Source: Pyrinomonadaceae bacterium (lineage in GTDB: Bacteria > Acidobacteriota > Blastocatellia > Pyrinomonadales > Pyrinomonadaceae). Taken from it: a DNA stretch of 58,361 nucleotides. This document shows positions 4,602-50,022 of the stretch, one piece after another. Location of the stretch: positions 1 to 58,361 of the forward strand of contig DATNNY010000654.1 of the NCBI GenBank assembly GCA_035601635.1, in the 5' to 3' direction. Numbering within the stretch: the stretch's first letter is position 1; each line of letters opens with the position of its first letter. The notes beneath the pieces were generated by a model. It worked only from the letters and a program-made list of their open reading frames with translations, had not been told where the DNA came from and searched no databases. The translations under genes and the position numbers were made by a program.

Positions 4602-4663
4602 GCAAACTGGCAAAGGCGCGGGAATGTGAAAGGAACAGTGTCCAGGTTGGTTTCGTCGTCCTA

Positions 4664-4785
4664 GGTTCTCATAGTTATTGAAATCTGGTCGATGAGATTA
4701 CAAGAACTTACAAGACTTTTCTCACAGTTAGTGAATCCCGATTCTCATTGTTAGTGATTTCCTGCTTACAAATTCTCGTTGTTCT
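4664..4785. repeat. Tn7-like left-end repeat block, copy A (three putative TnsB-binding sites)
   Basis: Sites are at 4664-4684 (GGTTCTCATAGTTATTGAAAT), 4717-4738 (TTTTCTCACAGTTAGTGAATCC) and 4740-4761 (GATTCTCATTGTTAGTGATTTC). The block aligns along about 125 bp with 11917-12040. Confidence 0.6.
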
Positions 4786-4838
4786 CGAGTTCAGTGTCAC
4801 CCAAGAGACAAACTAGGGACGTGGCCTACTGAGAATTA

Positions 4839-4929
4839 GATTTCAATAACTATAGTGCGGTCAATCTTCAACACTTTAGAAGAATTTTCTCACAGTTACT
4901 GAATCCGGATTCTCACCTGTTATTGATTC
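4839..4929. repeat. second, partial set of Tn7-like end sites (right-end-like site plus two left-end-like sites)
   Basis: ATTTCAATAACTATAGTGCGG (4839-4860) resembles the middle right-end site TCACTAACTATGGTGCGG. TTTTCTCACAGTTACTGAATCC (4886-4906) and GATTCTCACCTGTTATTGATTC (4908-4929) repeat the inner left-end sites. Confidence 0.5.
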
Positions 4930-5251
4930 TTATCGGCCCAACTACATCAGTTAATGCCGCTGGCTTCGCCCACCAATCTTCCGATCTAAATGGATTGCTC
5001 CTGTCACCAGGCGAGGCGCAACCGCTTTGGTATTCTTGCGCAGTTCTTTGCTATTGACAGATTTCTTCTGGGGCAGTAGAGTGTCGAAGCTATAAGCCAG
5101 CGGAGTTTTCGGCGGCGTTTTGAAGTTTGTCCCCGTTGACTGCGATCACCGCTTCAGCATCACACACTTCAGCTGCCCTCTCATCCTGCGACAGCCGCGA
5201 GTCCAACAAGGATAATATCGTCGATGGCGAGCAGGTCGCATTTACCAGCTT

Positions 5252-7483
5252 TTGACCTTGGCAATCGCTATGGCCTCACAGCATAACTTTCACGCTTCCC
5301 TAAAGAATCTTCTTCTGCCCGACCTTCGCGGCATGCGTAAGTGGGTGCTGATTCTGGGCTACATCGTTCTTGCAGCAGCCTTATTGGGAGTCGTCTACGT
5401 TCGTTTTTACGAACGGTTCAGCATGAACGAGTGTAAGAGCGATGGGCCGCAGAAGAATTGCCAGCAGCAACTTACTGCGGTTGAAGTTCCGCCGGTTAAG
5501 ACAGCAGCAAACCATTCAGGGATGTTCCCAGCGGGCGATCTGCTTACGGGAAGCTTCTTCCCGAATGTTCGACAGGCAACTGTCGCGAGTCAGCATTCTG
5601 TTCGTTACGCGCATCATCATACGCAACCAACTGGAAGCGAACAGATCAAAGCAGAAGACGGAACTGAGGAATCAAATTCAGCCAGTCTGTCGACGAATGT
5701 TCTACTTCCCGTTACGAGTGGCGTTGCGCAACCTGAAGCTTCGCCATCGCCCTCATTGCAGGCGCCACAAGATGCGACGCCAAAGTCGGCAAGTAAAAAT
5801 AAGAAACCTAACGCAATCAAACGGTTTGTCTTTTGGCTATGGAGTCTCTTCGCACCCAGGACGCAGTCTTTCATACCTGGCTTACCATCTCTGACATTTT
5901 CACCGTCAAGTTCCGCAAGCCCTTCAACCACGGTTCGGCTGCACTGTTTGCGCGGCAGCCCATGCGTTGTACAGTTTGGCGATTTGCGGGAATTCTACCG
6001 ACCTACATTCGAAGTAACCACGGGCGAAATACGGAAAGAACGTGGGGCGATGATTTGGGATCTTTCGGGAACGGAATCGGGTCTCTATGAGATGCGGATG
6101 CAGTTCGCAGGAAGTAGCAGAAAAGCTTTCGTAGCGATCGAGTGTCCGGATTGCGAGACTGGGCCGACGCCGACCCCAACACCACAGTCCACCCCTACAC
6201 CCCTGGCCACCCCGACGCCGATCCGGACGCCCACGCCAACGCCGACACCCACGCGGACACCAACGCCGCAACCGACGCCGACTCCAGTATGGACCCCAAC
6301 ACCATCGGCGACACCAACTGTGGCGCCGCCATCGCCAACGCCGGCGCGCACCCCGACGGCAGGACCAACGCCGGCCTGGACTACATCGCCAACGCCAACG
6401 CCTTTTGCAACCCCAAGCGGTTCGCCTGCAACTTCGGCAACGCCTCTACCTTTGCAGGAGACTGACTATGCGAATCAATCGTGGCCCGAAAAACTTCCCA
6501 AAGCCTGGGACAGTTACATTACGGTTGAGTTTCAGAGAACCTATGGACCGAAGGAACGACCAACCCCATCGCAATCCCCCGGTATTGTTTCAAGCTCGAC
6601 TCGCCTTCCCATCGTTCCCGGCGGGGAAGGAAATCCCGATAACGAGTTGTATGAAGCTTCTGCTTCAGTGGAGATAGCAAACACGAGCGACCTTGAAGCA
6701 CTACCGAATGGTGATAACGGAGACAAGTCGCTCGACGGGCGAAGACTCGTGCAGTGGACAATTCCGTTTAGATTGAAGAGCAATGTTACTCAACAGCGGG
6801 CTTTCGAGCTAATTTTCAACGTCAAGCTAACAAATAAGAAGACCGGCCAGTCGAAAACCACGTCGTACCATCTCGCGCCAGCATCAATCAAGGTGCACTG
6901 GATTCCGGGAACCAAGCTGCAAGCCTATGGTCTCTTTGGAACCCTTTTCCCGTTTTCATTCGCAATGATAATTTTTCCTGCAATAAAAGTTCAGTTCGGC
7001 GCCCTGGCGGGGCTCGGGCAAGAAGACGGCCAGTTGGCGAGCACGGGAGAATCCGTGATCGAGGAAGAAAACGTGCTCCACGCCAACCTTTGGCTTGAGG
7101 ACAAGGACAAGAGACCAATCCCGCCACCTCTCAGTCTCGAGTGGGGATCTGAGTATCGTCTGCTGTTTGCGATCGAGCCTGAGCTTAGAGAGTTCCTGAG
7201 CAGCAGCCAACTATTCATTGAGCCGCCTGAGCTTCAAAAAAGCCGGAGCACTGATGTCGAAATCCAGGTGATGAGTAGGTTGCTGAGAACCAAACTCGGA
7301 TGCGAGACGCGTAAGGTCGCATATTATTCAGGCAGGGGATTCGCACCTGAAGCTTTCGACATTGCGCCAGTTGCCGAGGGCTGGTACTCAATTACGGTTC
7401 GCCTCTTCTATCGAGAAACCATCATTTATCGCGAGAAAATAGAGGTGGAGGTAAAGGGCGCAACGAGAGCGGCGCGCGCTTGA
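5252..7483 (+). CDS. membrane-anchored protein with a long Pro/Thr linker and a C-terminal domain shared with the downstream kinase
   Basis: 743-aa ORF. The real start may be ATG at 5270 or 5333. N-terminal TM helix is WVLILGYIVLAAALLGVVYV. A (T/S)P-rich linker lies around 6160-6450. The C-terminal roughly 130 aa are homologous to residues encoded at 8430-8825. Confidence 0.7.
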   Translation: MTLAIAMASQHNFHASLKNLLLPDLRGMRKWVLILGYIVLAAALLGVVYVRFYERFSMNECKSDGPQKNCQQQLTAVEVPPVKTAANHSGMFPAGDLLTGSFFPNVRQATVASQHSVRYAHHHTQPTGSEQIKAEDGTEESNSASLSTNVLLPVTSGVAQPEASPSPSLQAPQDATPKSASKNKKPNAIKRFVFWLWSLFAPRTQSFIPGLPSLTFSPSSSASPSTTVRLHCLRGSPCVVQFGDLREFYRPTFEVTTGEIRKERGAMIWDLSGTESGLYEMRMQFAGSSRKAFVAIECPDCETGPTPTPTPQSTPTPLATPTPIRTPTPTPTPTRTPTPQPTPTPVWTPTPSATPTVAPPSPTPARTPTAGPTPAWTTSPTPTPFATPSGSPATSATPLPLQETDYANQSWPEKLPKAWDSYITVEFQRTYGPKERPTPSQSPGIVSSSTRLPIVPGGEGNPDNELYEASASVEIANTSDLEALPNGDNGDKSLDGRRLVQWTIPFRLKSNVTQQRAFELIFNVKLTNKKTGQSKTTSYHLAPASIKVHWIPGTKLQAYGLFGTLFPFSFAMIIFPAIKVQFGALAGLGQEDGQLASTGESVIEEENVLHANLWLEDKDKRPIPPPLSLEWGSEYRLLFAIEPELREFLSSSQLFIEPPELQKSRSTDVEIQVMSRLLRTKLGCETRKVAYYSGRGFAPEAFDIAPVAEGWYSITVRLFYRETIIYREKIEVEVKGATRAARA
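6163..6440. repeat. low-complexity Pro/Thr-coding repeat (TPTPTP...)
   Basis: Translated as TPTPTPQSTPTPLATPTPIRTPTPTPTPTRTPTPQPTPTPVWTPTPSATPT. This region generates several spurious alternate-frame ORFs. Confidence 0.9.
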
Positions 7484-10141
7484 AAGTTCTCCTGCTGACG
7501 AAGGCGAGGTATTCGCGTCTCTGCCTTTTTGGCTCATTCGTTCACGAAAGGTTAAAGGATATTCGTTCGAAAATAAGAGACTACCGGATCATAAGTGAGC
7601 TCGGGAGGGGCAGCATGGGTGTCGTCTATGTCGCCGAACACCTATCGCTCGGTCGCCTTGTGGCGATAAAGACTCTTAACCTGAAAGCTGCGAAGGAAGA
7701 ACCGAATTTCCGCAAACGCTTCTTGCGCGAAGTTCGCACAATTTCGGCTCTTTCCCATCCGCAAATCGCGGCAGTTTACGATTACGGAGAGACCGAGGAT
7801 GGAGAACCCTTCCTCGTCATGGAACTGGTCAGAGGCGAGACCCTCAGCGATCTCATCTCGACAGACTTTCTCACAATTCCGCGCTCCCTCGACATCACTA
7901 GACAGGTAACTGAAGCGCTGTCCGTAGCCCATCGCCATGGTGTCATCCATCGCGACAGGTGTCATCCATCGCGACATTAGACCCGCCAATGTGATGGTCA
8001 AACCGAGCGGAGAAGTGAAAGTTATGGATTTTGGTATCGCTAATCTGCGGAAGCCCGGGGAGACCCCACGTTACGGAAAGCAGTCGACCGACGTCCGCGC
8101 AGTTCGTAGCGCAATGAATTATGCGGCACCTGAGCAGGCATTGGGCGAGCCGCTCGACTCGCGCGTCGACGTTTTTTCGACCGGTGTTTTGCTCTACGAA
8201 ATGTTGACGGGCAGATTGCCTTTCCGGAACGCGCTCCTGAACGAGGAACCACCGCGTCTGACTGAGGTCAGCTCCGGACCGACGCCCGAAGGCTTGCAGC
8301 AAGTCTTGAACCGCGCTCTAGCAAAGGATCGTGGGGCACGCTATCACGATATTATGGAGTTCAAGGACGATCTGAACTCGGTCATGCGGCAACTCGAAAG
8401 GAGCTATGCGAGCAAGGCTGAAACATCAGACGAGAATATTCTGCACGCTAATCTATGGATCGAGGACGATTATCGTGAGCCGGTGTCGCAACCTCTGATT
8501 ATCAGCACTAGCGACGCGTACTTCTTATTGTTCGCTATTGAGAACAAAGTCAGAGAGCGCATTAGCAGTACCCAATTATTCGTTGAGCCGGAGTCGCTGC
8601 AAGAGAAGCCTATATCGGTCGTGGAAATTGTGGTTTCAACCGATCTCTTGAAGGAAGCGACCGGCCAGGAGACCCGTCAGGTTGAATACTATGCAGGGAC
8701 CGGCACTCTTCCTGAAGCTTTCGCGCTCTATCCTAGAGTCGAAGGGCGTCACCCGGTAACCATTAGACTCTTCTATCGACAGACCATTCTCTACAGAGAA
8801 CGATTCTGTGTGGACGTCATTGCCCGTCTCAATCAGGCTCATACAGAGACACTGATCATGCCACGAACTCAGGAGGTAGCTTATATGGCTAATTTCGATG
8901 AATTCATTCAGCCTAACTTGACGTTGACGCTGGACCTCGACGGCAATTCTCTTTATTTGAGTTATCGAACTCCTGGGAACGAAAGGAAGGATCGAATCCG
9001 CCTACCCGTGCCGCCGGATCAAATCACCGACCCGGTAATCCTGATGCGAGAGGAACTCTCAAATTGGGCTAAGAAATACGAAGAGGTTCTGGATAAGGAC
9101 AAGAAAGATAGGTTGAGTTGCGATCCTGTAAAAATCAAAGATATGTGGACGTACCTGGCTCAAGAAGGACAGAGACTATACAGATTAATTTTTGATCTCG
9201 ACGACCAAACCGATCTTAATCTGGTCAAGCTAGCTGAAAACATCAAGGAACGGCTCGAGCCGGAATCAACAATAGAGATTGACGCGAGTCAAGTGCCTAT
9301 CCCATGGTCGATGTTGTTCGATGATGAGATCCCTTCCGTTGACGACCCGCTTTATCTCGAAAAGTTGCTCCCCCATTTTTGGGGCATTCGCCATCAGCTC
9401 ACAGTCCACCCGCCTTTAGGCACCAACACGTTCAATAACAAGCCTTACCTCGCGAACACTGATGGCACGAGACTTACGATCGGGGTTAATAAACAGACCG
9501 ATCTGGAATATCAGACCGGCCAAATGACTTTCTTTCAAGGCATGGAAGAGAAATTCAAGCAACTAACGGATCCAGAAAAGAGGTACTTGTTAATGCTCGG
9601 CACCTCCAAGGAGCAGGTGATATCGAGCTTGACTAAACGGGAGGAGCCGCAACATCTCTACTATCTTTTTTGTCATCACGAAAAAGGCGAAGGCGAGATC
9701 ACGATCTACGGAATTTCTGACAAGCTTAAGAAGACCCAGATCATTATGGAAGGGCAGCAGCAAGGCGTAATTACTCTCCAGGAGTTATCTGACAACCGTG
9801 CGATCCGCCCGTTTCGTTCTCCGCCCGTAATTTTTCTAAACGCCTGCCAGTCCAGCAAATTAAAGATGGGCGATCCGACCTCGTTTATGACTTACTTTAT
9901 CAGGCGCTTGGGATCCTGGAACTTCGTGGGTACTGAAGCAGACATCCCAGCGCCGTTCGCCGATGCCTTTGGGCAGCGTTTCGTAAAGGAGTTTTTGAAG
10001 GGCAAACGAGTAGGTGAAATCCTATTCGATTTCAGGAAAGACTATGCGCGTCGGTATTTCAATCCTTTTGGTCTCTACTACACGCTGTTCGGGCGAGGTG
10101 AAATTCATCTGCAGAATCCGGTTGCGGGAGTAACGCCATGA
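7480..10141 (+). pseudogene. Ser/Thr protein kinase - CHAT (caspase-like) fusion, frameshifted by a 19-bp tandem duplication
   Basis: ORF 7480-7980 has GRGSMGVVYVAEH, AIK and HRHGVIHRD, then terminates. ORF 7937-10141 restarts at GVIHRDIRPANVMV, DFG and APE. The C-terminus has a CHAT-like His/Cys pair (YYLFCHHEKGEG and VIFLNACQSS). Removing one 19-bp copy restores a single frame. Confidence 0.8.
7939..7976. repeat. exact 19-bp tandem duplication GGTGTCATCCATCGCGACA x2
   Basis: Read directly: 7939-7957 equals 7958-7976. It lies on the HRD catalytic-loop codons. Confidence 0.95.
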
Positions 10142-11502
10142 CGCGCCACTACGTAATCAGTGATTTACACCTCGGCATGGGTCGAATAAATGAAACGGAA
10201 TGGCATCCGCTTGAAGATTTCAAGTCGGACGAAAGTTTTCACAAATACCTCGACTTCATCGACAAGGATGGAGGCGATGAACTGATTATCAACGGCGACT
10301 GGATCGATTTTATGCAGTTAGAGCCGTTAGCGTATGATCCCGATCACCTGCACTACTCGGAAGACGGTCACATTCTAGGATGGACCGAAAAGGATTCCCT
10401 GGCCAAGTTAGAGAGCTGCAGAGCTCAACTTGCACATAAAAACTTCTTTGACGACCTGCGGCATTTCCTTAGTTCTGGAAAGAAATTAACGATCATCATG
10501 GGAAACCATGATCCCGATCTGTTCTGGCCGGGTGTTCAGGCTGAAATTATCAGCTATCTGAATCCGCCGGAGAAGGATCGCCTCGAGTTTTCCCAAACTT
10601 TTGTCCGTCGGGGCACCGCTCATATCGAACATGGTAATCAATACTGTTCGCCTGAAAACAGATTCTACAATCCTCAGAACGTTTTTCATCGCAGCACTGA
10701 AGACAACCTCGAACGGCTCGAAATGGCGTGGGGCACCATCTTTGTGATGGAATTCTTTAACTCGATTGAGGAAGAGTTTCCTTTTGCCGACAACATCAAG
10801 ACGCAGGTACGAGCCATTTGGCTGGGGATTAAGAATGGCTGGGTTGGCGGTAAGATGGCCGCTAAGTTCGTAAAGTTTATGATCAGCGCCGGCATTCCCT
10901 GGAGCTCCATTACAGCGAATGTTTTAGGGCCGAAAAAAACAGCGCCTCATCAATTGATTCAAAATCTTGGCGAGCCCGCAATCACCGCCGAGCTGCTGAA
11001 AAATTACGGATCCAATCCTGCTTTTAAGAAAAGCTTTGACGATGAAATAGCTCGCACCACTAATGCTGAGTGGCGAACTCTCCAGCTGCAAAATGTCCGA
11101 AATGCAGAGCTATCCGGACCTGACAAAAGACCTGTTACAGCCGCTGAACTTACGCCGGATCCGGCTGGCAGTCCGGTGATGGGTGTCTTTCGCGATGAGC
11201 CTGAGTTTCGAGGCGCCACCGAATTGTTGAAGCGAAATCGAGGAGGTGAGGTGATTTTTGGTCACACGCACACGGAGATTGACGGCAAAGATCCTAAAGC
11301 CAAAGTGAAAAATTATTTTAATACGGGAACGTGGGTCGATAGTCTTGATCTTTCTCAACCGGGGAAACGCGAGATTCTCAAGAACATAAAAGGACCAGAC
11401 CTAAAGAACGATGCAATCTTCGATCTGCGGTTAAGACAAGTCATTATTGATCTCGACGACAACAATGCTACTCGAGTATCTTTGGAACCTATTAAGCCTT
11501 AG
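10138..11502 (+). CDS. calcineurin-like metallophosphoesterase
   Basis: 454 aa with ISDLHLG, NGDWIDF, GNHDPD and FGHTH motifs. The start overlaps the upstream stop (ATGA). Confidence 0.8.
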   Translation: MTRHYVISDLHLGMGRINETEWHPLEDFKSDESFHKYLDFIDKDGGDELIINGDWIDFMQLEPLAYDPDHLHYSEDGHILGWTEKDSLAKLESCRAQLAHKNFFDDLRHFLSSGKKLTIIMGNHDPDLFWPGVQAEIISYLNPPEKDRLEFSQTFVRRGTAHIEHGNQYCSPENRFYNPQNVFHRSTEDNLERLEMAWGTIFVMEFFNSIEEEFPFADNIKTQVRAIWLGIKNGWVGGKMAAKFVKFMISAGIPWSSITANVLGPKKTAPHQLIQNLGEPAITAELLKNYGSNPAFKKSFDDEIARTTNAEWRTLQLQNVRNAELSGPDKRPVTAAELTPDPAGSPVMGVFRDEPEFRGATELLKRNRGGEVIFGHTHTEIDGKDPKAKVKNYFNTGTWVDSLDLSQPGKREILKNIKGPDLKNDAIFDLRLRQVIIDLDDNNATRVSLEPIKP

Positions 11503-11862
11503 TCACTTAGTCTCACAGAACAAACCTAGAATCATTTGATCGCCTGGATAAGGCGCGCCAGAAGCAAGACGCCACTCTCGAGTGAACCAAGTGTCGGTTG
11601 CTATTCCGGCAGTCGATTTGTTGATTTCTTGTAATGATGGAATTAATGCCCGAAGTCTCTACTTATGGGTGGACATAAACGCGGGATACTTACAGTGTGT
11701 ACTGTCGGAAACGAGCAGTTCGTGCGCCTTGTCTTGATCGTGCAGCATGCGTGAACGTGTTTTCTGGTCGTTCATTATGTGAGGGAGATTATAGATCGGC
11801 TGCCAGCAATGCAGATATTGGCGGGACGGTACGAGAGAACAGATCGACGCGCCGTGGCGTGG

Positions 11863-11907
11863 AATCACTAACTATGGTGCGGATTTCACTAACTATGAGA
11901 ACCGACA
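11863..11907. repeat. Tn7-like right-end sites, copy B (end of element 1)
   Basis: AATCACTAACTATGGTGCGG then ATTTCACTAACTATGAGAACCGACA. Nearly identical to 49408-49452. Confidence 0.6.
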
Positions 11908-11916
11908 TCGTCTCTA

Positions 11917-12040
11917 GGTTCTCATACTTAATGAAATTTCGCTGGCTAAGATACAACAACTTACAGGAATCTTCTCAAAGTTAGCGCGTCCAGATTCTCG
12001 TAGTTATTGATTTTCTTCTGTTCAATTACCGTTGTTCATA
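11917..12040. repeat. Tn7-like left-end repeat block, copy B
   Basis: GGTTCTCATACTTAATGAAAT (11917-11937), CTTCTCAAAGTTAGCGCGTC (11971-11990) and GATTCTCGTAGTTATTGATTTT (11993-12014). Colinear with 4664-4785. Confidence 0.6.
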
Positions 12041-12162: not shown

Positions 12163-13323
12163 CTATTGTGATGTCTCCCAAGTTATTTTCCCTACTGATG
12201 TCTCAGGCCGCAGGAAGGCAATCCACTTAAGTAACGTGCTGTACTGCAAGTATCGTCTACCGAACCTTGGTTTTGCGTAGAGTCTGCGTGCCAAAAATCT
12301 TCTTCGACGCATTGTCCTACCAATTGCGCTCGAACGAATTCGCTTGTCATAGGTCGAGAAGGAGAAGTCATTCGACCTAATCGCGTTATTAGCCGACTGC
12401 GCAGCAATCATGCCAAGGGCAAGAGCAGACGTGATCCCCTCGCCAAACAAGGGGTCGACACCGGCAGCATCGCCAGTTAGGAGGACTCGGTCCAGGCTGC
12501 ATGGCGCCCGTGGTTCATAGCGCAGGAGAGGGTGTGATTTTTGTTCGAAACGATTTGCATCAATACCGTGTTCCCCGAGCCATTCGGCAAAGGAATCTCG
12601 CAGATGGAACGTTTCGTCTTTCCTGAATGGCGCAGCCATGATTCCCAAACTTACGACTGGAGGCTCTTCGGACACCGTTGGGAAGATCCAACAGTATCCG
12701 GGAACTCCCCGACTCGTTACACTAAGATCAAAAATGGCCATGTTTCTCGAAAAATCGGGAATGTCCGTTTCACCAAGCGAGGCAAAAGTCTCTATTGCAA
12801 TCATGAGCCGATCGTGACGAGGCAGGCCCACTAGCCTGCGCACTGTGCTGTTCGCTCCGTCGGCTCCAATGACAATCTTTGTTCGATATTCGTTCTTCGA
12901 GGTCCTAATAACGATATCCTGCGAAGTGCGGGTGATATTATCAACTGACTCTCCGTCCCTGGTAACAACGCCACGCCGACGTGCTGTTTGAAATAGAAGG
13001 TCATCGAATTGATCCCGACGAATCACCCGAAAATGATCAGGATGTCTAACTGTTAGACATCCGGTGGGTAGAACGAACTTCGAAATGTGGACCGGATGAG
13101 ATGGCAAATCAATTCTTAGACCCAACTGCCCCAGAATGACATCGGCGTCCTTGATCATCCCGCCAGCACATAGCTTAACGCGAGGAAAGACCGCCCTATC
13201 CAGAAGGAGCACGCGACTGGTGATATCGGGATCCAGCTTGGCTAACTCGAGGGCGGTCGCACAGCCGGATGGACCTGCTCCGACGATTATGATCTCAAAG
13301 TCATGCATGGACGAAACCTTCAA
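12163..13323 (-). CDS. FAD-dependent oxidoreductase, geranylgeranyl-reductase family
   Basis: 386 aa. N-terminal dinucleotide fold is IIIVGAGPSGCATALELAK. A second motif, LLTGDAAGVDPLFGEGITSAL, is typical of the GGR/FixC-like family. Confidence 0.75.
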   Translation of the reverse strand: MKVSSMHDFEIIIVGAGPSGCATALELAKLDPDITSRVLLLDRAVFPRVKLCAGGMIKDADVILGQLGLRIDLPSHPVHISKFVLPTGCLTVRHPDHFRVIRRDQFDDLLFQTARRRGVVTRDGESVDNITRTSQDIVIRTSKNEYRTKIVIGADGANSTVRRLVGLPRHDRLMIAIETFASLGETDIPDFSRNMAIFDLSVTSRGVPGYCWIFPTVSEEPPVVSLGIMAAPFRKDETFHLRDSFAEWLGEHGIDANRFEQKSHPLLRYEPRAPCSLDRVLLTGDAAGVDPLFGEGITSALALGMIAAQSANNAIRSNDFSFSTYDKRIRSSAIGRTMRRRRFLARRLYAKPRFGRRYLQYSTLLKWIAFLRPETSVGKITWETSQ

Positions 13324-13669
13324 ACTTCAAGGCCTATGTAATTGGGAAGGAACAATTGCACGCGCTGGGCATTTACGGTCCCAGTAAACGAACAGGTTTA
13401 GTTTCGATCATGAAGGCCTTGACCTCCGTTAATTCGCCATAATAGGCTCAGCCGGCTTCAGACGTAAATCAGTAGACCGTTAGAAGACGGATTCTTCGGC
13501 AATCTCGCGTCCTGAGCCAGGACAAACGAGAGCCGCATTCGATGGGTGCTTAAGTCTGGCGTGTCTGAGTATTCCGATGATAACCCTTTGAAACTGCATG
13601 AATCGCTGCTGGGTTTCACCGCGACCGCTTAACTCACACGTCACGCGTTAACCGGGACTGAGGAGAAAT

Positions 13670-14356: not shown

Positions 14357-14732
14357 GAAGCAAGGCTAATCTAAATTCGACGAAGCGGTGGACCGCCCTC
14401 TCGACTGTGGCTTACTATAGAATCAAAGAAAACTGGAAAGAAAACGAGCAAGCCGAGACAACGGGAAGCGGCTGATCTCGACTCTTTGCTCCGCACTTGG
14501 TCGGGCCAAAAGGTGAGCCGGTTAAATCGGTGGTCTATCTGCGTCATAGGATTTGCTGGCGATGTGTCGATAGAGGTCAAAGAAATAGCTGGGAAATGAA
14601 ACAAATTGAGAAATCTTATATAGACCATTCTCAGACTGAGTAGCTTTTATATTGTCTCGACACAATTTTGAAGGCATAATACGCCGACCTCAAACGAGCA
14701 AGTTTCTGAAGGTTTAGGCTTTACCCAGACTA

Positions 14733-15536: not shown

Positions 15537-15620
15537 ACCATTGAAAAGAGACCGTTTGCTTCTCAGCCGCTGATTCTTATGACGGTTTAATGATAGCCCG
15601 TTGTCCAGGAGATTAACCTC

Positions 15621-17442: not shown

Positions 17443-17476
17443 CGTCGATTTCACTTGCTCTAATTAGCCACGGTTT

Positions 17477-39100: not shown

Positions 39101-39121
39101 ATTCCACAGACTCGCTACGAT

Positions 39122-42238: not shown

Positions 42239-42265
42239 TTCGTTCGTTGACCAGAAGTAGCACCC

Positions 42266-42502
42266 TCAGTGTTTCTTATCTTTGGGAGGATTCGGGTCGT
42301 TGCCATAACTGTCCTTGTCTTTGATTCTGTTTTCGCGATTATGAATAACCAATTCAGACCCACGTGTTTTAGCGAGCGGCGTTGCGGTCTTAATGGCTGC
42401 CTGCTGTGTGTCATGGAGACTAGATGCTCTTTTATCTCCTTCACTTATCACTGCCCAACTCTTATCCTTGCGATGTGTGACATGAACGTTCTTCTTTGCC
42501 AT
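42266..42502 (-). CDS. DUF2188-like small protein
   Basis: VHVTHRKDKSWAVISEGDKRASSLHDTQQAAIKTATPLAKTRGSELVIHNRENRI matches my memory of DUF2188. Confidence 0.6.
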   Translation of the reverse strand: MAKKNVHVTHRKDKSWAVISEGDKRASSLHDTQQAAIKTATPLAKTRGSELVIHNRENRIKDKDSYGNDPNPPKDKKH

Positions 42503-42633
42503 CGGAGCTACCTCCCTCGGAATGTTTCATTGATGTAGCTGAGTTTCTCAGATACAATGCGCCCATGAAATCACCTTTTGTTTCACTAGTCAAGCATTGT
42601 TCCACATAAAACACAGCTGGAAGGATTGGAATT

Positions 42634-43017
42634 ATGGCGACTAGAAAACTTAGCAGCTTGGGAGCACTAGTTAGGAAGAAGCGCGGCGAGCGAAAATTGC
42701 GCGAGACTGCTGGGCAAATTGGCATTGGTCCAGCAACGTTGATGCGAGTAGAGAACGGGCGCATTCCGGACATAGAGACTTTCGGCAAGCTGTGCAACTG
42801 GCTGAAGATTGATCCTGGTAGTTTCTTGGGATTTCAGCCAGATGTAAGTCAAGCCGCTCAGTTATCACCGAATGAGCCAGCGGTGTCCTTGTCCGCCCAC
42901 TTCAGGGCAGATCGAACACCAGAGCCGGCGACCGTGAATGCCCTTGCGAAAATGATTCTCTTAGCTGTTCACTCGCAGCGGGGGAGCGAAGTCTTAGAAG
43001 AAGATGACCACGCTTGA
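42634..43017 (+). CDS. XRE-family HTH regulator
   Basis: LRETAGQIGIGPATLMRVENGRIPDIETFGKLCNWL. It overlaps the downstream ImmA-like ORF. Confidence 0.75.
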   Translation: MATRKLSSLGALVRKKRGERKLRETAGQIGIGPATLMRVENGRIPDIETFGKLCNWLKIDPGSFLGFQPDVSQAAQLSPNEPAVSLSAHFRADRTPEPATVNALAKMILLAVHSQRGSEVLEEDDHA

Positions 43018-43582
43018 GCGAGGCTTCAAATCCTGGGCCGAACGCACCTCCCTTGCATTTCGAAAGGAATTGGGCGTTCCCATTGACGCTCCGCTTAAAC
43101 CTCAACAGGTAGCAGAGTATCTCGGCGTTGAATTATGGACGCCAAGCCAGGTCCCCGCGATAACGAGGGAAATAACGGATCAATTACTGAAGATCGATCC
43201 TTGGGGATGGTCTGCAGCGGGCATGCAACTTAACGATCGAGGAATTGTTGTTTACAACCCTCGCCATTCACGGGGTCGCCAAGTTTCTGACATTACCCAT
43301 GAACTTGCGCATTTCATATTGGATCACCAACCCGCAAAGATTATTCTGTCGGCCGACTTGGATGGTATGAGCATGCGATCTTTTAATCAGAAACAAGAGG
43401 ATGAAGCGAACTGCCTCGCTTGGACCCTTCTTCTTCCGCGAGAAGGATTAATGCGAGCGAAGCGGCGCCGTCTGACGGCGGACCAAATCGCTGAACAATA
43501 TGGCGTAACGAAATCGCTCGCAGTATATCGGTTGAATTCCACCGGGGTGGAAAAACAATTAAGAGCTCGACTCGCGCATTAG
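43004..43582 (+). CDS. ImmA/IrrE-family metallopeptidase
   Basis: HELAHFILDH (HExxH) with EDEANCLAWTLLLP downstream. This is the classic pairing with an upstream XRE gene. Confidence 0.75.
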   Translation: MTTLERGFKSWAERTSLAFRKELGVPIDAPLKPQQVAEYLGVELWTPSQVPAITREITDQLLKIDPWGWSAAGMQLNDRGIVVYNPRHSRGRQVSDITHELAHFILDHQPAKIILSADLDGMSMRSFNQKQEDEANCLAWTLLLPREGLMRAKRRRLTADQIAEQYGVTKSLAVYRLNSTGVEKQLRARLAH

Positions 43583-43627
43583 GGAAGAGGGTCTTTCAAA
43601 GGATTACCACCACTCCTTAAGCGAAAT

Positions 43628-46600
43628 GTGACAATGGATCTAACGACCTTTTTTGGCCGGCTCGGTTATCTGGAGTCGCCGCACTTCTTGCGACGTGGCA
43701 GTGCTGAACTGCGCGCGGCACCGGACTTTGGCCACATATTTCGAAAGGCGACAGCTAAACCGTGCCATCTAGAAGGTGTTTATACGCTACGGCGTACTCC
43801 CCAATCCAAGACTGAGCCTCTTGTCCCCGTCGTCTATGTCTGTACTGCGGAGTCCGAACAGGCTGCAGCCAAAATCCATGAACTGGTGTGGAACCAGGAT
43901 ATCGTTCCTTTCCTACTGGTGCATTCGCCGCGCGGAGTTTCCCTATATTCGGGTTTTAAGTGCCAACCGCTAAAGAACGGCTTAGAGCGAGGAGTCTTGA
44001 AGCCATTGATGCAATTCAATGAAGTGTCGGAACTCGCTGAGTCATTTCATGCCGACGCTATCGACAGCGGTAAGTTGTGGAGAGATTGGGGCCGACACGT
44101 CACACCGGAAACGCGGATCAACTGGAAGTTACTCGGTAACTTGCTGAAGCTCGATCGCTGGCTTCGAGACAATGGCGGCTTGGAGAAGGATGTTTCTCAT
44201 GCATTGATAGGTAAGTACGTTTACCTGCATTACCTGCGCGATCGAGACATTCTCTCAGATGCGCGACTGGCCGAGTGGCAGCTCGATGAATCGGCGATCT
44301 TTGGGGGTACTGCCACCCGCGCTGGATTGCAGGCCGTCACCGAAAGGCTGGATGAGTGGCTTAATGGTAGCGTGTTTCCGCTAAAGCTGCGCGGCCGCGG
44401 TGCGCCAGATGATGAGCTGATCTCACGCGTCGCAGCTACCTTTCATGGTGACGAGATAGTGGGTGAACGTGACTGGCAGTTGCATCTTGACTTCCGCGTC
44501 TACGACTTTTCCTACATTCCAATCGAGACCCTGTCGGTAATTTACGAACAGTTCTTACATATGCCCGAGGAGGACGGCGGAGCTACGAAGGGCGAAGAGG
44601 CCGCCGCTTACTATACGCCGATACCAGTCGTCAATTTCATGTTGTCGGAGATGGAGGAACGATTACCGCTTCAACGTGGAATGAAGGTTTTCGATCCGGC
44701 TTGCGGCTCTGGGGCTTTCCTTGTTCAAAGCTATCGTAGACTTATCGAGCGTGAGTTTCCGGTTACGAAACAGAGGCCTACGCCGCACGAACTTCGCGCT
44801 TTATTAGAAGATCATATCTTTGGAATCGACAACGACCCTGATGCATGCCAGGTGACAGAGTTGAGTCTCATTCTCACGCTACTCGATTACGTTCATCCGC
44901 CGGACCTATTGCCAACGTCGCCTGGGAAGCCTAACTCCGATTTCAAGCTCCCTGCCCTGGTTGGAACTAATATTTTTCAGACAAATTTTTTCAAGCTAAG
45001 TAATGCCGCGCGTCAGAACTTGGCCGAAATTAAGTTTCATTGGATCGTTGGAAATCCTCCCTGGAAAGATCTTAATCCCGCCAAACTGATCAAGCAAGAC
45101 GAGCCGGCTTGGGAATGGATGCGCGATAAGGAGAATGTGAAGCAGCGGCCGTGCGGTGACAACGAACTGGCTCAGGCGTTCGCGTGGCGATCAAGTGAGT
45201 TTCTGTTTGACGCTGGAGCGACTGCCCTACTACTGCCAGCGATGACGCTATTCGAAGATCCGTCGCGCAAATTTAGAAAGAGGTTCTTCAAAGCTCAACG
45301 AGTCACCGCAGTGGCTAACTTCTCGAACCTTGCGGAAGTCCTCTTTGCTAGCGGCAGATCCACCGTCAAGCGTCCTCGGATACCTGCAGCATCTTTCTTC
45401 TTTTGCAATCGCGACCAAGTTGAAGTTGATCCCGATGACTGTATTCGCGTGTTCTCACCAATGGTAGCGAATCAAGAACCAACTCGACCGAGCGTTCAGG
45501 GAGAACGGGTGCCTACTTGGAGTTTGGTCATTAGCGCTAATGAAATCCGCGATGTTTCAGTGGGAGAAGTCGCTAGGGGAGATGCTCTTCCTTGGAAACT
45601 TGCCATGTGGGGCTCGGCGTCCGACATAAAATTGTTAACCCGCACTGCGAGCCGCATGACGAGTATTGGAGAACTCGAAGCTGAAGGAGCGATTGTGGTA
45701 GCTGAAGGCCCCCCGCTAGTATCTTCACATGTCAAGAGCGGTAAAAACCGAACGAAATATGTTCCCGAAGTGGTCGGTCAACCGCTGCTAACGATGAACG
45801 CTGCCGCAAGACTCCGATATCTCTTTGACTTTCCGAACAATGCTTTTCTTGAGAACAAGAAATACTACGGTCACCTGCGTCGCGGGATCCGCGGTCTAGC
45901 TATTTGTAATGCCCCCCATGTTGTCGTAAGTGCCGCGCGCACGTTTGCGATCTTCAGCGACAAGTACTTTATTGTTCCGACCCGACAGATCGGCATAATA
46001 AGCACGACAGGCGATGATGCTTTTCTCAAAGCGCTCTCGCTTTATCTAAGTTCTGACTTTGCGTTCTATCACCAGTTTCTTACATCTCCTCAATTTGGCG
46101 TGAAACGTGATGTGGCAACCCTCAATGCTCTCCGACGCATTCCAGTACCGATTGCAAATCGAAGCCGTGAATATCTTGAACCGTGGTTACAACTGCATAA
46201 CCGGCTGGTCAAAACTACTCCCGTCGATGTACGCGACACCCGTATCGAGCAGCGCGGAGAAGGCCAAAAACAACTTCAATTCGGTATCCCTGATCGTGAC
46301 AACCTCGTTCCTCTGTTGAACGAGTTGAACAATCTCGTGTATGACACCCTTGGATTTGACGATCATGACCGCGCATTAGTCCATGACCTTGTACGCGTTC
46401 GATTACATCTGATTGACGGGAATATCGGAAGGCCAGCTATTCGTCCGCCGAAGCAGGCCGAGATGAAAACCTATGCCCGTCGATTAAAGGCTGATCTTGA
46501 TGCTTTCGTTGGCGACGAACTGGACAAGCGGCATCAGGTCGGTATTGTCTATGACAACGAGTCCGGTATGATCCAAATCGATCTAATTGCCGACAAAATG

Positions 46601-46849
46601 GCAGCTCGTAGTCTCACTGTTGTCGCGGCAGATCAATTGACCGCGCGACAGTTGGAAAAGACGCGGCGACGCCTCAGAAAACAGCAGAGCCAGTGGCTCT
46701 ACTTCGATCGTAATCTACGTGTCTACGAAGAATCGAAGACGTTCGTGTTGAAGCCTATGCAACGGTTCCATTGGACTGAAAGCCAAGCGATGTTAGATGC
46801 TCAAGAAATCATTGCAGGAACCCTACAACTCGGAGACCAAATCCAGTGA
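43628..46849 (+). CDS. large N6-adenine DNA methyltransferase (Eco57I/type IIG-like architecture)
   Basis: AAYYTPIPVVNFML, the SAM motif VFDPACGSGAFLV and the catalytic IVGNPPW. About 300 aa at the N-terminus and about 550 aa at the C-terminus are unknown. ATG at 43634 is a likely start. Confidence 0.8.
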   Translation: MTMDLTTFFGRLGYLESPHFLRRGSAELRAAPDFGHIFRKATAKPCHLEGVYTLRRTPQSKTEPLVPVVYVCTAESEQAAAKIHELVWNQDIVPFLLVHSPRGVSLYSGFKCQPLKNGLERGVLKPLMQFNEVSELAESFHADAIDSGKLWRDWGRHVTPETRINWKLLGNLLKLDRWLRDNGGLEKDVSHALIGKYVYLHYLRDRDILSDARLAEWQLDESAIFGGTATRAGLQAVTERLDEWLNGSVFPLKLRGRGAPDDELISRVAATFHGDEIVGERDWQLHLDFRVYDFSYIPIETLSVIYEQFLHMPEEDGGATKGEEAAAYYTPIPVVNFMLSEMEERLPLQRGMKVFDPACGSGAFLVQSYRRLIEREFPVTKQRPTPHELRALLEDHIFGIDNDPDACQVTELSLILTLLDYVHPPDLLPTSPGKPNSDFKLPALVGTNIFQTNFFKLSNAARQNLAEIKFHWIVGNPPWKDLNPAKLIKQDEPAWEWMRDKENVKQRPCGDNELAQAFAWRSSEFLFDAGATALLLPAMTLFEDPSRKFRKRFFKAQRVTAVANFSNLAEVLFASGRSTVKRPRIPAASFFFCNRDQVEVDPDDCIRVFSPMVANQEPTRPSVQGERVPTWSLVISANEIRDVSVGEVARGDALPWKLAMWGSASDIKLLTRTASRMTSIGELEAEGAIVVAEGPPLVSSHVKSGKNRTKYVPEVVGQPLLTMNAAARLRYLFDFPNNAFLENKKYYGHLRRGIRGLAICNAPHVVVSAARTFAIFSDKYFIVPTRQIGIISTTGDDAFLKALSLYLSSDFAFYHQFLTSPQFGVKRDVATLNALRRIPVPIANRSREYLEPWLQLHNRLVKTTPVDVRDTRIEQRGEGQKQLQFGIPDRDNLVPLLNELNNLVYDTLGFDDHDRALVHDLVRVRLHLIDGNIGRPAIRPPKQAEMKTYARRLKADLDAFVGDELDKRHQVGIVYDNESGMIQIDLIADKMAARSLTVVAADQLTARQLEKTRRRLRKQQSQWLYFDRNLRVYEESKTFVLKPMQRFHWTESQAMLDAQEIIAGTLQLGDQIQ

Positions 46850-47508
46850 TAAATGCATCGCGTCCTCGGCCCGGCGGCTTTTCAAGCAATTCTGTTTACC
46901 TACGAAGGGTGTTTGTTCGACGGGTCCATCAACTGGTGCTACTCGGCTATGACCGATTGACACCTTCTGCTTACGAAAAAGCGGAAGAGCCTTCGATCTC
47001 AGGCGATTTGGTTGAAGCAATTGACCATGTTTTGAGCGAGCGCGACGAACCATGGATGTCTATGTTCAGCGTACACGACGATCCCCCTATCAACGACGGT
47101 CGACGAAAAGGAAAACGCCGAAAACGCGTTGACCTGCGGATTGATTCGGGAGCGCTTCGCCCTCGTGCCCGTTTCCGATTTGAAAGTAAGCGGCTCGGTA
47201 GACGCCACACGGTAAAAATTTACCTTGGGACTGATGGTCTCGGATGTTTTCTGCGCGGTGATTACGCGCGAGAAGAGGACCAAGCCGGTATGCTCGGCTA
47301 CGTACAGCGTGGCAACCTAGGAGATTGGGGTAAGAAGATCGCGCAAGAATTCGCCAAGGCTCCGGCTCTTTATGCGGTGGACTCAGAAGCTCCGTTCTCC
47401 GTCGAATCAACACGTTCAACTGTCTCGCAGGCGTATCATTCGCGACACAATCGCAGCGCCGTGGGTCGACCAATTCTCATTGACCACATCTTGCTAATAT
47501 TCTACTGA
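46846..47508 (+). CDS. putative PD-(D/E)xK nuclease-fold protein
   Basis: It overlaps the methyltransferase stop. RVDLRID...FRFESKRL fits a D...E-x-K pattern. The motif-level call is weak. Confidence 0.45.
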   Translation: MINASRPRPGGFSSNSVYLRRVFVRRVHQLVLLGYDRLTPSAYEKAEEPSISGDLVEAIDHVLSERDEPWMSMFSVHDDPPINDGRRKGKRRKRVDLRIDSGALRPRARFRFESKRLGRRHTVKIYLGTDGLGCFLRGDYAREEDQAGMLGYVQRGNLGDWGKKIAQEFAKAPALYAVDSEAPFSVESTRSTVSQAYHSRHNRSAVGRPILIDHILLIFY

Positions 47509-47569
47509 GACTATGTGCGAGGCAGAGTACGGCAGGCGATAAGATCTAAAGCCACTCAGTTAATACCAC

Positions 47570-48481
47570 ATGTTTCAGGACTTCCAACCACCTTTCTATT
47601 GGCAACAGTTTGAAGATCTTACCGAGGCTGTTTTCCCGTATTTATATGGGGGAGCTCTCGCGCAAAAAATTGGTCGGGCTGGTCAAGCCCAACACGGGGT
47701 TGATGTGTACGGGCAATGGCTACCCAGTAAAAGCCGCATCGGAATTCAGTGTAAACGAATGGATGAGCTGGACGAGCAGAATCAACCGCGTCCCGGAGGA
47801 GCCGTTACAAAGAGATTACTTTACGATGAATACGAACAAGCTTTGAAGTTTAGACCTAAGTTGGATGAATGGATTCTCGCAACTACGGCGAAGCGAGATG
47901 AGAAAGCTCAACGTTTAGCTCGGCTGCTCGACAAAGAGTCTCAAGATCGTGGCGACTTTGCCGTTCGAATCTGGTTTTGGGATGACTATCGTTCCTACCT
48001 TAATAATTTTGGCGAGTTACAGCGACGGTACTATCGTCACGTCTTAAATGTGAGATCGTCTAAGGATATTGACAAACTGACACTCGAAGTCTACGCGCAC
48101 GCATTCTCTCGGCCCGCCTTCCAGGATCCCATCTACTCTGAAAATGCGGATGATTTTCTTCAAGCCATCCAGGACACGATGCGCGCGCTGAATACCGGTG
48201 AATTGGTGGACCGCGAAACAAGGAACATAATTAGAAGAGCGATTGGCGGCCGTCGCTCCATACAGGAAGATGTTTGGCGGCTCGCTTGTGACAAAGTCTA
48301 CCGTCGACTGTTGGAACTAAAAACGACATTCCAAAGCGGTCTCAAAGATGGGATGATAGTGATTAAACCTTATGACCTTCAAATTGAACGTGGCCTTAAA
48401 ATGCAACTCGAATATCTGAGGGAATCCGCCGTTGCAGAACTCAATTCCGTCCTTAAGATGGCAAGTCTTCGACCCATCTAG
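47570..48481 (+). CDS. Mrr-like restriction-endonuclease-domain protein with an unknown C-terminal module
   Basis: FEDLTEAVF...GRAGQAQHGVDVYG...IGIQCKR...WILATTAKRD fits the Mrr_cat-like pattern. Confidence 0.55.
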   Translation: MFQDFQPPFYWQQFEDLTEAVFPYLYGGALAQKIGRAGQAQHGVDVYGQWLPSKSRIGIQCKRMDELDEQNQPRPGGAVTKRLLYDEYEQALKFRPKLDEWILATTAKRDEKAQRLARLLDKESQDRGDFAVRIWFWDDYRSYLNNFGELQRRYYRHVLNVRSSKDIDKLTLEVYAHAFSRPAFQDPIYSENADDFLQAIQDTMRALNTGELVDRETRNIIRRAIGGRRSIQEDVWRLACDKVYRRLLELKTTFQSGLKDGMIVIKPYDLQIERGLKMQLEYLRESAVAELNSVLKMASLRPI

Positions 48482-48525
48482 AGGAAGATGCATTTACATT
48501 AGCCGCATATACCCCTTCGCCAGAC

Positions 48526-49338
48526 TCAGTCAAATAAGACTTCTTTTTGAATCTGAGAATACCCCACCTCTCCGGAGAAAATGGGGTTAAGTACGTCTGG
48601 ATACTTTCCGTGATAAACAAAATAAAGATATCGAATGGCCGCGCACAAGTGTTCCAATTTTGATTTATGATCTTCGAACTTAATAATTCGCGCTACAGTG
48701 CATTCTTGGAAGGCAGCCAGTAAATCAAAATTAAAATCTTCGCGGAAGTGCCCGCAGATATCTTCAATAATCTCAGGTGATGTCAGATAATGGGAGAACG
48801 TCTGAGAGCTAGTGTAATCGGCCATTGCCAGTGGCAGGATCAAGAATCCGTATGGTCCCCAATGGATGGCATCCTCGAGTTTTGAATTGTATTCATAGAT
48901 CCCGCTCAAACTTAGCCGAAATTGATCCCAATCTTCTCTTGAGACAATATGCTGGGCTAATTCAAATAGCGCTTCCCATAGCGAATCAAGCACTTTGGGA
49001 AGTGGCAGAATACCTTCAGTAAAGGTCGTGGATCTCAGAGTACGGGTAAGATGAAACCAAAACGTCGTGTCGAAGGGTTTGTCGGGGACTACGAGATTCT
49101 TAATCGGTCGTAGAAGAAACTCATCAGACGCTTCGTCGAGATGAGCCAACTCCGCACCCAATTCGTCAAACCATTCGTTTAGCGAACCCTCGTCGATTCC
49201 GAATGATTTATGAAGCGACTCATATATGGACGGCACACTCTCACAATCTAGAATTCTCTTGGATGCCGTTAACATCTCTTGTTGGTTCCTTAAGGGTTGT
49301 GTCAGGTGATTGTACAGTCTGCAAGCGAGAACCGACAC
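48526..49338 (-). CDS. hypothetical protein
   Basis: 270-aa ORF. It is the last gene before the right transposon end. No motif recognised. Confidence 0.5.
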   Translation of the reverse strand: MSVLACRLYNHLTQPLRNQQEMLTASKRILDCESVPSIYESLHKSFGIDEGSLNEWFDELGAELAHLDEASDEFLLRPIKNLVVPDKPFDTTFWFHLTRTLRSTTFTEGILPLPKVLDSLWEALFELAQHIVSREDWDQFRLSLSGIYEYNSKLEDAIHWGPYGFLILPLAMADYTSSQTFSHYLTSPEIIEDICGHFREDFNFDLLAAFQECTVARIIKFEDHKSKLEHLCAAIRYLYFVYHGKYPDVLNPIFSGEVGYSQIQKEVLFD

Positions 49339-49386
49339 GTGTCCCTTGTGACGTCGAGATCATTGAGACCAACTAATATCATTGGA

Positions 49387-49452
49387 ACCACTAACTATGA
49401 GAAAAGATATCACTAACTATGGTGCGGATTTCATTAACTATGAGAACCGACA
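49387..49452. repeat. Tn7-like right-end block, copy C (three contiguous putative TnsB sites)
   Basis: ACCACTAACTATGAGAAAAG / TATCACTAACTATGGTGCGG / ATTTCATTAACTATGAGAACCGACA. The spacing is about 21 bp. The terminal ...ACA is followed by TCGTC, which overlaps the dcd stop codon. Confidence 0.65.
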
Positions 49453-49455
49453 TCG

Positions 49456-50022
49456 TCAGAGGCGGGGCAGCGTCACCCCCCGCTGACCTTGGTACTTACC
49501 TCCTCTATCTTTATAAGAGGTTTCACAAATCTCGTCAGATTCGAAGAAGACCACTTGGGCGACTCCTTCATTCGCATATATCTTAGCCGGCAACGGTGTG
49601 GTGTTTGAAAACTCGAGAGTCACGAAGCCCTCCCATTCCGGTTCAAATGGTGTTACATTGACCAAAATTCCGCATCTCGCATACGTGCTCTTCCCGAGGC
49701 AGATTGTTAGCACATTTCTAGGAATTCGAAAGTATTCAACTGTGCGCGCGAGCGCGAAACTGTTTGGGGGAATGATTACGGAGTCGCCTCTCACCTCAAT
49801 AAAGTTCTTTTCATCGAAGTTTTTTGGATCGACGATGGTGCTGTTGATGTTTGTGAACAGCTTGAACTCATCTGAGCAGCGGATGTCATAGCCGTAGCTG
49901 GATGTTCCATACGAGACGATCGGTTTTCCATCTACTGCCTTCACCTGGCCCGGTTCGAACGGCTCAATCATGGCAAACTCCAGAGCCATGCGGCGGATCC
50001 ACTTGTCGGATTTTATGCTCAT
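49456..50022 (-). CDS. dcd: dCTP deaminase
   Basis: 188 aa. [28 protein letters not shown]...[23 protein letters not shown] is typical of the short Dcd family. Confidence 0.9.

Follow-up and report, generated by a model that had tools for sequence, protein, structure and literature searches.

The window analysed here, the whole 58,361-nt stretch of contig DATNNY010000654.1 from a Pyrinomonadaceae bacterium, carries an island that is very probably an array of two Tn7-like transposons of one Blastocatellia/Pyrinomonadaceae family, whose attachment site is the 3′ end of dcd, the dCTP deaminase gene. Element A (4661–11907, 7.2 kb) and element B (11913–49452, 37.5 kb) lie in tandem beside a foreign dcd allele, which we call dcd′. 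The first-pass annotation, made from the sequence of the window alone, had proposed stacked Tn7-like elements at the dcd stop codon, and this proposal is supported by the transposon ends, by the haplotypes of the locus, by the tns genes of element B, and by the fixed register in which the family abuts dcd. L-numbers denote loci retrieved from other assemblies. The features that define the array and its borders are as follows.

4649–4653: native left bases GGTTT; blastn identity to empty-site contigs ends at 4653
4654–4660: CGTCGTC, 7 nt absent from empty sites (junction sequence comparison)
4661–4800, forward strand: left end of A, with sites at 4664–4682, 4717–4735, and 4740–4758
4838–4930: extra partial end block, in A only, with a forward right-type site (4842–4860) and a partial left block (4869–4915)
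11864–11907, forward strand: right end of A, two packed sites, terminus ...GAGAACCGACA; identical in A-only contigs L002 and L003
11908–11912: TCGTC, right flank of A and left copy of the 5-bp target duplication of B
11913–12037, forward strand: left end of B, terminus TCTAGG, sites at 11917, 11970 (weak), and 11993
49387–49452, forward strand: right end of B, three packed sites, terminus ...GAGAACCGACA
49453–49457: TCGTC, right copy of the 5-bp duplication of B, overlapping 2 nt of the dcd stop codon
49456–50022, reverse strand: dcd′, intact foreign dCTP deaminase gene, 83% amino acid and 76% nucleotide identity to the native allele
50023–50173: 151 bp of foreign sequence upstream of dcd′; right foreign border at 50173/50174
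50174–50524, reverse strand: native dcd remnant, codons 1 to ∼116, frameshifted by a 2-bp insertion

The anatomy of the array is read directly from three natural states of the locus, which we recovered from other soil assemblies of the same population through exact-protein look-ups. The empty state (L009–L013) has a DUF4386 gene followed 50 bp later by dcd. The A-only state (L002, GCA_009772255.1; L003, JGI 3300012923) has the dcd of the window joined directly to the right end of A, reading on the dcd strand ...CCTCTGACGA joined to TGTCGGTTCTCATAGTTAGTG... and then the interior of A; across the junctions, these contigs are 99.6 to 100% identical to the window. The A+B state, which recurs in independent assemblies (L001 and L004, JGI 3300012582), agrees with the window. 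The A-only and A+B states differ by exactly 11913–49452 plus one TCGTC, which fixes the termini of B (TCTAGG...CGACA) and its 5-bp duplication, and this is what the earlier idea of successive insertions reusing one duplication had predicted. An assembly artifact is unlikely here because the longest exact repeat between the two right ends is ≤25 nt. We infer that B was inserted rather than lost; the opposite direction, with A-only arising from A+B by loss of B, is less likely. The empty site suggested as a check exists, in L009–L013, although not as a join of 4660 to 49453, since the borders of the foreign DNA are 4654 and 50173.

The ends of both elements are built from a repeated site of ∼19 bp that is confined to the three junctions. 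Searching with the 18-mer TCACTAACTATGAGAACC at ≤3 mismatches gave eight matches, against 0.05 in shuffled sequence, and none of them lies elsewhere in the 58 kb. A position-weight matrix, derived from these junction sites themselves, gave scores of 19 to 29 only within 4664–4903 (reverse strand), 11864–12011 (two forward sites, then reverse), and 49387–49448 (forward). Its strong sites on the reverse strand start at 4664, 4717, 4740, and 4885 in the left region of A and at 11917 and 11993 in the left end of B; those on the forward strand start at 11864 and 11885 in the right end of A and at 49387, 49409, and 49430 in the right end of B. The left blocks, previously noted as colinear from 4664 and 11917, do align (4661–4784 with 11914–12037) over ∼124 bp at 74% identity. 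The packed right-end blocks proposed at 11863–11907 and 49387–49452 coincide with the matrix sites, and 11864–11912 matches 49409–49457 at 48 of 49 nt, TCGTC included, with the likeness ending sharply further inside. The outermost sites are, as had been described, inverted copies of each other, 95% complementary over 22 nt. Across the family, right ends have sites at offsets 5/26/48 and left ends at 5/58/81, sometimes with another at 112, so the Tn7-like architecture read from this one locus (dispersed left sites and packed right sites) holds family-wide. All right ends terminate in ...CGACA, a uniformity partly forced by the search pattern.

The pentamer TCGTC lies at all three junctions where it had been reported, namely at 4653–4657/4656–4660, 11908–11912, and 49453–49457. 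Its right copy shares its last 2 nt with TCA (49456–49458), the complement of the dcd stop codon. Its proposed role as a 5-bp target duplication holds for B, by comparison with the A-only contigs, but the leftmost copy has no clean match. The nonstandard left terminus that had been a caveat is real: the left termini that can be mapped by their duplications (B, L026, and L033) all read TCTAGG, not TGT, and further left ends in the family begin TGTAGG, TCCAGG, TATAGG, and so on. The recurrence of TCTAGG indicates that the missing TGT is a trait of the family rather than decay. The terminus of A reads CTAGG, which is TCTAGG with its first T gone or changed to C, and the left duplication of A stays ambiguous by 1 to 3 nt; within the CGTCGTC stretch, it could be TCGTC at 4656–4660, or at 4653–4657 followed by GTC. 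Spacers consisting of a duplication plus its last 3 nt occur in two cases (TTATT+ATT in L042/L061 and TCGTC+GTC in the window) and hint at retained 3-nt flaps of the kind left by TnsA. The expected contrast in base composition was also found, with GC contents of 0.506 for A and 0.491 for B against 0.576 and 0.570 for the two flanks, except that the right border lies not at 49.45 kb but at 50173, up to which the low GC content and foreign sequence extend.

Further members of the family, in many soil metagenomes, place dcd at the center of its insertion behavior. We scanned metagenomes with the terminal 20-mer of the right end and obtained 44 loci with 45 ends. Twenty-three of these ends abut dcd, each a different allele (51–95% protein identity to dcd′), and at 21 of the 23, the gap between the last sense codon and the terminal A of the end is exactly 6 nt, made up of the stop codon and 3 nt beyond it; the right end is always the one proximal to dcd. 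This recurrence at distinct alleles in a fixed register identifies dcd as the attachment gene of the family, and answers the earlier question whether the same end repeats abut dcd in other genomes. When the dcd flanks are aligned, the duplicated 5 bp are variable, and positions +31 to +59 are conserved (TG.CC.TG.TA.TT.CC.CC.CG.TC.T); this block encodes the C-terminal DRGGKYQGQ motif of dcd. Three right ends (L027, L037, and L045) instead follow hybrid histidine-kinase/receiver genes, again at 3 nt beyond the stop codon, which gives one subgroup of the family a second attachment gene. The remaining right ends are at assorted sites, among them that of L033, which has a clean 5-bp duplication (CGAGG) with a TCTAGG terminus, as does L026 (CATCT).

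Arrays are common in the family, since another left end directly adjoins 5 of the 45 metagenomic right ends and, among 7 left ends from metagenome-assembled genomes (MAGs), 2 sit 4 to 8 nt past a right-end terminus. Such stacking suggests that target immunity is weak or bypassed. The seven MAGs, which came from a genome scan with the left end, all belong to Blastocatellia, Pyrinomonadaceae, or unclassified Acidobacteriota. Complete small elements of 1.2 to 7.4 kb, with no room for tns genes, are also common. At the other extreme, L068 is a close relative of B with intact tnsB, tnsC, and tniQ and with the same left-side cargo at ∼79% nucleotide identity. Its tns genes and the right end L024, which adjoins a different dcd allele, lie on one 122-kb contig without overlapping and are likely parts of one element. 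In the intact relatives (L005–L008 and L066–L068), the element ends lie >10 kb from tnsB.

The transposition genes of the array are all in element B, where tnsA, tnsB, tnsC, and tniQ occupy the middle of the element on the reverse strand. We identified them by Pfam, NCBIfam, and Protein Data Bank (PDB) sequence searches; HTH denotes helix-turn-helix, ECF extracytoplasmic function, and IS insertion sequence.

21808–24291, reverse strand: tniQ/tnsD-type selector, 827 amino acids, N-terminal TniQ domain (PF06527, E=1.7e-16) plus HTH_17
24329–25393, reverse strand: tnsC, TniB-type AAA+ ATPase (PF05621, E=2.3e-28), adjoining tnsB
25390–31010, reverse strand: tnsB, split at about codon 66 by an IS; PF00665 (rve core) and PF09299 (Mu-transposase C-terminal)
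27457–30807: IS1595-family element, 3,351 bp, 22-nt inverted repeats, 8-bp duplication TTTTCAAC
31285–31932, reverse strand: tnsA-like endonuclease (PF08722, 5e-7), D...ExK motif present
31948–36165: regulator block with a sigma54-type activator (31948–33222), a 165-amino acid open reading frame (ORF), an ECF sigma factor (33687–34307), and HTH genes

The TniQ protein matches solved TniQ/TnsD chains in sequence, for example 7u5d_I (1e-10) and the TnsD chain 8v32_J (8.5e-5). TnsA scores 1.9e-13 against the NCBIfam model TnsA_like, below the cut-off of the model, and matches the TnsA part of the PseTnsAB fusion chain 30jv_A with the D...E-x-K residues aligned. TnsB has 1446 homologues at E≤1e-20, of which the full-length ones are ∼740 to 770 amino acids long. 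Alignment to homologues places residues ∼66 to the end at 27456–25396 and residues 1 to 66 at 31010–30816, and removal of 27457–30815 in silico makes tnsB colinear with a 754-amino acid homologue. The order of the tns genes is conserved in L005–L008 and L067/L068. The regulator block upstream of tnsA is kept across L005–L008 and L066–L068, with the sigma54-type AAA+ activator in some members only, and its conservation suggests that the transposon encodes its own transcriptional control. The earlier observation that the tns genes read away from the right end is correct in direction, but it applies to B only, and there the genes start 17.5 kb from that end.

Several smaller features accompany these genes. 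The IS1595-family transposase (28450–29436; PF12762, 1.6e-40; NF033547, 4.5e-55) has as passengers two tRNA genes, Asp-GTC at 29660–29746 and Thr-AGT at 29778–29848, both above the Rfam threshold, and two ORFs of unknown function. Between tnsA and tnsB, a short reverse-strand ORF (31040–31285) is a diverged copy of TnsB residues 283 to 336 at 63% identity; it spans the region of the first catalytic Asp, and the relative L005 keeps a 76-amino acid ORF (9747–9977). A lone forward site-like sequence just downstream of tniQ (21574–21592, matrix score 15.4) could be what is left of an end, or a TnsB site with a regulatory role. As this weak site was the only one inside B in the matrix scan, which is insufficient, we rejected a division of B by further internal ends.

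Element A has no transposition genes among its ORFs and is a non-autonomous element, typical in this of a family in which small tns-less elements are common. Its extra end block at 4838–4930 was seen in no other left end of the family and is possibly a relic of an older (tandem) junction. The cargo of both elements is mainly of defense type.

5252–11502, forward strand: cargo of A, comprising a 743-amino acid protein of unknown function, a Ser/Thr kinase, and a metallophosphoesterase
12163–21548: left-side cargo of B, with metabolic-type genes, comprising a flavin adenine dinucleotide (FAD) oxidoreductase, a UbiA prenyltransferase, a NUDIX hydrolase, genes of unknown function, and a pair of paralogues whose C terminus is nuclease-like
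36554–49338: right-side cargo of B, comprising a PDC-S54 homologue (PADLOC candidate family) and a caspase-DEAD-box helicase, HamB-like
36554–49338: right-side cargo of B, continued, comprising an HTH and M78 peptidase pair, a type IIG restriction-modification enzyme, and unknowns

The Ser/Thr kinase of A resembles PADLOC family PD-T4-6. A perfect 19-bp tandem duplication (7939–7976) frameshifts it exactly at the HRD catalytic loop, and deleting one copy in silico restores a single ORF of 880 amino acids. The haplotypes also differ by an indel: ∼98 bp of the window (11349–11446), toward the 3′ end of the metallophosphoesterase gene, are missing from the A-only contig L002. In the left-side cargo of B, part of which is the portion shared with L068, two neighboring genes have 3′ regions of 300 nt that are 83% identical (18263–18562 and 20260–20559), and one of the two weakly matches a pPIWI-associated nuclease domain.

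The dcd gene beside the array did not originate in this host. The window is 97% identical to the empty-site contigs on the left as far as 4653 and again from 50174 onward. The 3′ 216 bp of native dcd, its 3′ third, are missing, and in their place stand CGTCGTC, A, B, complete dcd′, and the 151 bp upstream of dcd′. The foreign DNA thus extends from 4654 to 50173, and these are the true borders of the island because dcd′ is foreign and came with it. The attachment gene that in fact served A and B is dcd′. The A-only contigs already carry dcd′ and the native remnant in this arrangement, so A and dcd′ arrived before B. In L051, a family right end at a native-type dcd allele is flanked by GGTTT, the 5 bp at which native sequence stops on the left of the island; the family can therefore use native dcd as a site too, and the left border has the look of a transposition junction. 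The most economical account, we infer, is that an element resident at the native site recombined with incoming DNA carrying A next to dcd′, with the second joint made illegitimately inside native dcd. The L051 element gave no alignment of ≥150 nt to the window, so it lends no support to a resident A at the native site. Among the retrieved loci, nothing closer than ∼80% nucleotide identity was found as a donor of dcd′, and the 151-bp piece upstream of it matches the same population only.

At least twice, attachment-site DNA has moved with elements, since L017 also holds a foreign dcd fragment. In the oriented copy of that locus, 3230–3980 contains a degenerate 3′ fragment of a distant dcd type together with a right-terminus relic on the far side of the array, and the array's own dcd retains host synteny. 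These cases raise the idea, which we regard as speculative and rather doubtful, that the transposon array carries its own landing pad, such that a functional foreign dcd′ linked to A replaced host dcd and then received B, as one instance of recurrent element-driven co-mobilization. Possible routes would be bypass of a right end or recombination between elements, and a family with little target immunity would, as a possibility, also account for the frequent stacking. If true, such elements would turn over an essential housekeeping gene and import their preferred integration site into new genomes.

Two observations concern the host sequence around the array. Upstream of dcd, the host gene at 50789–51598 encodes a metallo-β-lactamase (MBL)-fold hydrolase, with matches to the Anti-Pycsar Apyc1 and RNase Z families, and its pairing with dcd is syntenic in many related genomes. 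At 984–1029, there is a match to the Acido-Lenti-1 small RNA (Rfam RF01687, 44 bits), which fits an acidobacterial host.

The Tns proteins would presumably act along the lines known for Tn7. In Tn7, TnsD acts at glmS, and the geometry of attTn7 is paralleled by the conserved block in dcd. On the strength of this parallel, the 827-amino acid TniQ/TnsD-type protein is predicted to read the +31 to +59 block, binding the last conserved dcd codons (...DRGGKYQGQ...) 30 to 60 bp from the insertion point. It would then recruit the AAA+ protein TnsC and the end-bound TnsA/TnsB transposase, and insertion would follow 3 nt past the stop codon, with the right end toward dcd, a 5-bp duplication, and dcd left intact. 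A second element can land between the first and dcd because the site is regenerated.

The history of the locus can be read in four steps. The ancestral locus would have had the DUF4386 gene and then native dcd. Element A would have arrived with dcd′ and the 151 bp upstream of it, replacing the last 216 bp of native dcd, which would have needed recombination or deletion besides, or in place of, simple transposition. The 37.5-kb element B would then have inserted between A and dcd′, duplicating TCGTC. Finally, the IS1595-family element would have split tnsB of B, and the 19-bp duplication would have broken the kinase gene of A.

Several points weigh against this account of two transposons stacked at dcd. 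The evidence comes from comparison of sequences rather than from observed transposition, and B cannot move by itself now because its tnsB is broken by the IS. Its tns genes are far from the right end, unlike those of Tn7, and the left termini lack the canonical TGT. About 15 of the 45 right ends adjoin neither dcd nor another element. Seven extra nucleotides precede the left end of A, whose terminus deviates (CTAGG or CCTAGG), and the outermost flanks, GGTTT on the left and TCGTC on the right, do not match, so that simple insertion does not account for the arrival of A. Among the searched loci, we found no dcd′ haplotype without A and no donor genome. The 49-bp repeats of the two right ends could also, in principle, recombine and convert A+B to A-only.

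This last point opens the way to a different history, in which B never transposed in this lineage, recombination brought in A, B, and dcd′ as one block, and the A-only contigs arose later, when B was deleted through the 49-bp repeats. Only one of the 49 positions differs between the repeats (11864–11912 and 49409–49457), and a crossover on the right side of that position would yield exactly the sequence of L002/L003; in addition, tnsB of B is inactive. We nevertheless consider this history quite improbable. The exact stretches are only 25 and 23 nt, a poor substrate for homologous recombination, and the IS in tnsB can post-date the insertion of B. Furthermore, the A-only state occurs in two assemblies (GCA_009772255.1 and 3300012923) that each also have an empty-site contig (L009 and L012), no contig recovered from either carried B, and the arrays and 5-bp duplications across the family show stacking by insertion to be its normal route. 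It might also be that A and dcd′ moved into the native site as one long unit, running from the left end of A to a distal or cryptic right end past dcd′, with a proposed later deletion removing the distal end and the 3′ part of native dcd. The native left flank ends at GGTTT, as at the right-end flank of L051, and the array of L017 contains a foreign dcd 3′ fragment with a right-terminus relic, both of which speak for such a move. It is doubtful all the same, because the matrix scan found no right-end-like site near 50173, the seven nucleotides CGTCGTC lie between GGTTT and the left end of A, and an additional deletion is required; recombination between a resident element and incoming A–dcd′ DNA explains the same facts without unusual transposase activity.

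It seems to us extremely improbable that the repeats are merely dispersed through the genome and have nothing to do with transposition, or that the array is a chimera of metagenome assembly. The window does come from a metagenome-derived assembly, and repeats can mislead assemblers. However, the sites occur nowhere else in the 58 kb and always form oriented left and right blocks with 5-bp duplications, and the junctions recur independently: 4653/4654 and the A–B junction in L004, the B–dcd′ junction in L001, and 50173/50174 in L001, L002, and L003. At ≤25 nt, the exact repeat in the right ends falls below the k-mer lengths with which assemblers usually finish; some of the assemblies have contigs named k141_..., which indicates k=141 for them. 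We conclude that an array of two Tn7-like elements at dcd is much the best reading of the locus.

The stacking of elements at an attachment site and defense-rich cargo are already known properties of Tn7-like transposons; the targeting of dcd adds that gene to the safe-harbor genes known for these elements. No report of dcd as a Tn7-like attachment site was found in the literature searched, which included the main text of PMC11014353, PMC10293859, and PMC8649781. The family also defines a sizeable Tn7-like clade in Acidobacteria, a phylum with very few described ones; the large cargo survey in PMC8649781 gives only four acidobacterial host species. The series of empty, A-only, and A+B states supplies base-pair-exact ends, duplication, and register, as required for rebuilding the system in a heterologous host. 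Work on end recognition, immunity, and regulation in Tn7 and CRISPR-associated transposon (CAST) tools could be informed by three features of the family, namely a left terminus other than TGT, the frequency with which elements with near-identical ends are stacked, and a sigma factor and sigma54-type activator encoded by the transposon itself. Replacement of the host dcd by a transposon-linked foreign copy means that attachment-site islands can drag housekeeping genes across lineages.

Among known systems, CASTs share the Tn7-like core machinery and differ in their targeting, which in the present family is by protein; membership was excluded, as no Cas Pfam domain was found in 40 scanned ORFs and no Rfam CRISPR repeat family was matched. 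The Tn5053/Tn402 family (TniA, TniB, TniQ, and TniR) resembles ours in having a TnsB-like DDE transposase, a TniB ATPase, and TniQ. That family is without TnsA, has a resolvase, and targets res sites; the presence of TnsA and the absence of a resolvase domain among the scanned ORFs exclude membership here. An integrase or resolvase as an alternative route of integration was likewise absent from the 40 scanned ORFs.

The closest likeness is to Tn7 itself. Both have a heteromeric TnsA/TnsB transposase, TnsC, and a TniQ-domain selector with an HTH domain; in both, the sites are packed at the right end, which terminates in ...ACA, and dispersed at the left, and 5 bp are duplicated; and both insert in one orientation downstream of a conserved gene, with the right end proximal and the gene intact, at a point where conserved coding sequence 30 to 60 bp away is the likely recognition element. 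Every Tn7-like protein and end feature is present except the left-hand TGT. The differences are that Tn7 targets glmS and the present family dcd, with insertion 3 nt past the stop codon and a duplication that overlaps it; that the left terminus is TCTAGG rather than TGT, and no TnsE homologue was recognized here; that the tns operon is in the middle of the element, 17.5 kb from the right end of B, after genes for an ECF sigma factor, a sigma54-type activator, and HTH proteins; and that the host is an acidobacterium in whose family of elements arrays with near-identical ends are frequent.

The family also resembles those Tn7-like families that build islands at fixed genes, such as Tn6022/AbaR, in its dedicated attachment gene, defense-rich cargo, nested ISs, and non-autonomous decay. 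Tn6022/AbaR inserts inside comM via TnsF and shows strong target immunity (PMC11014353), and other protein-targeted families of this kind are surveyed in PMC10293859. In contrast to Tn6022, the present family inserts outside the dcd reading frame, encodes a long TniQ/TnsD-type protein, and stacks.

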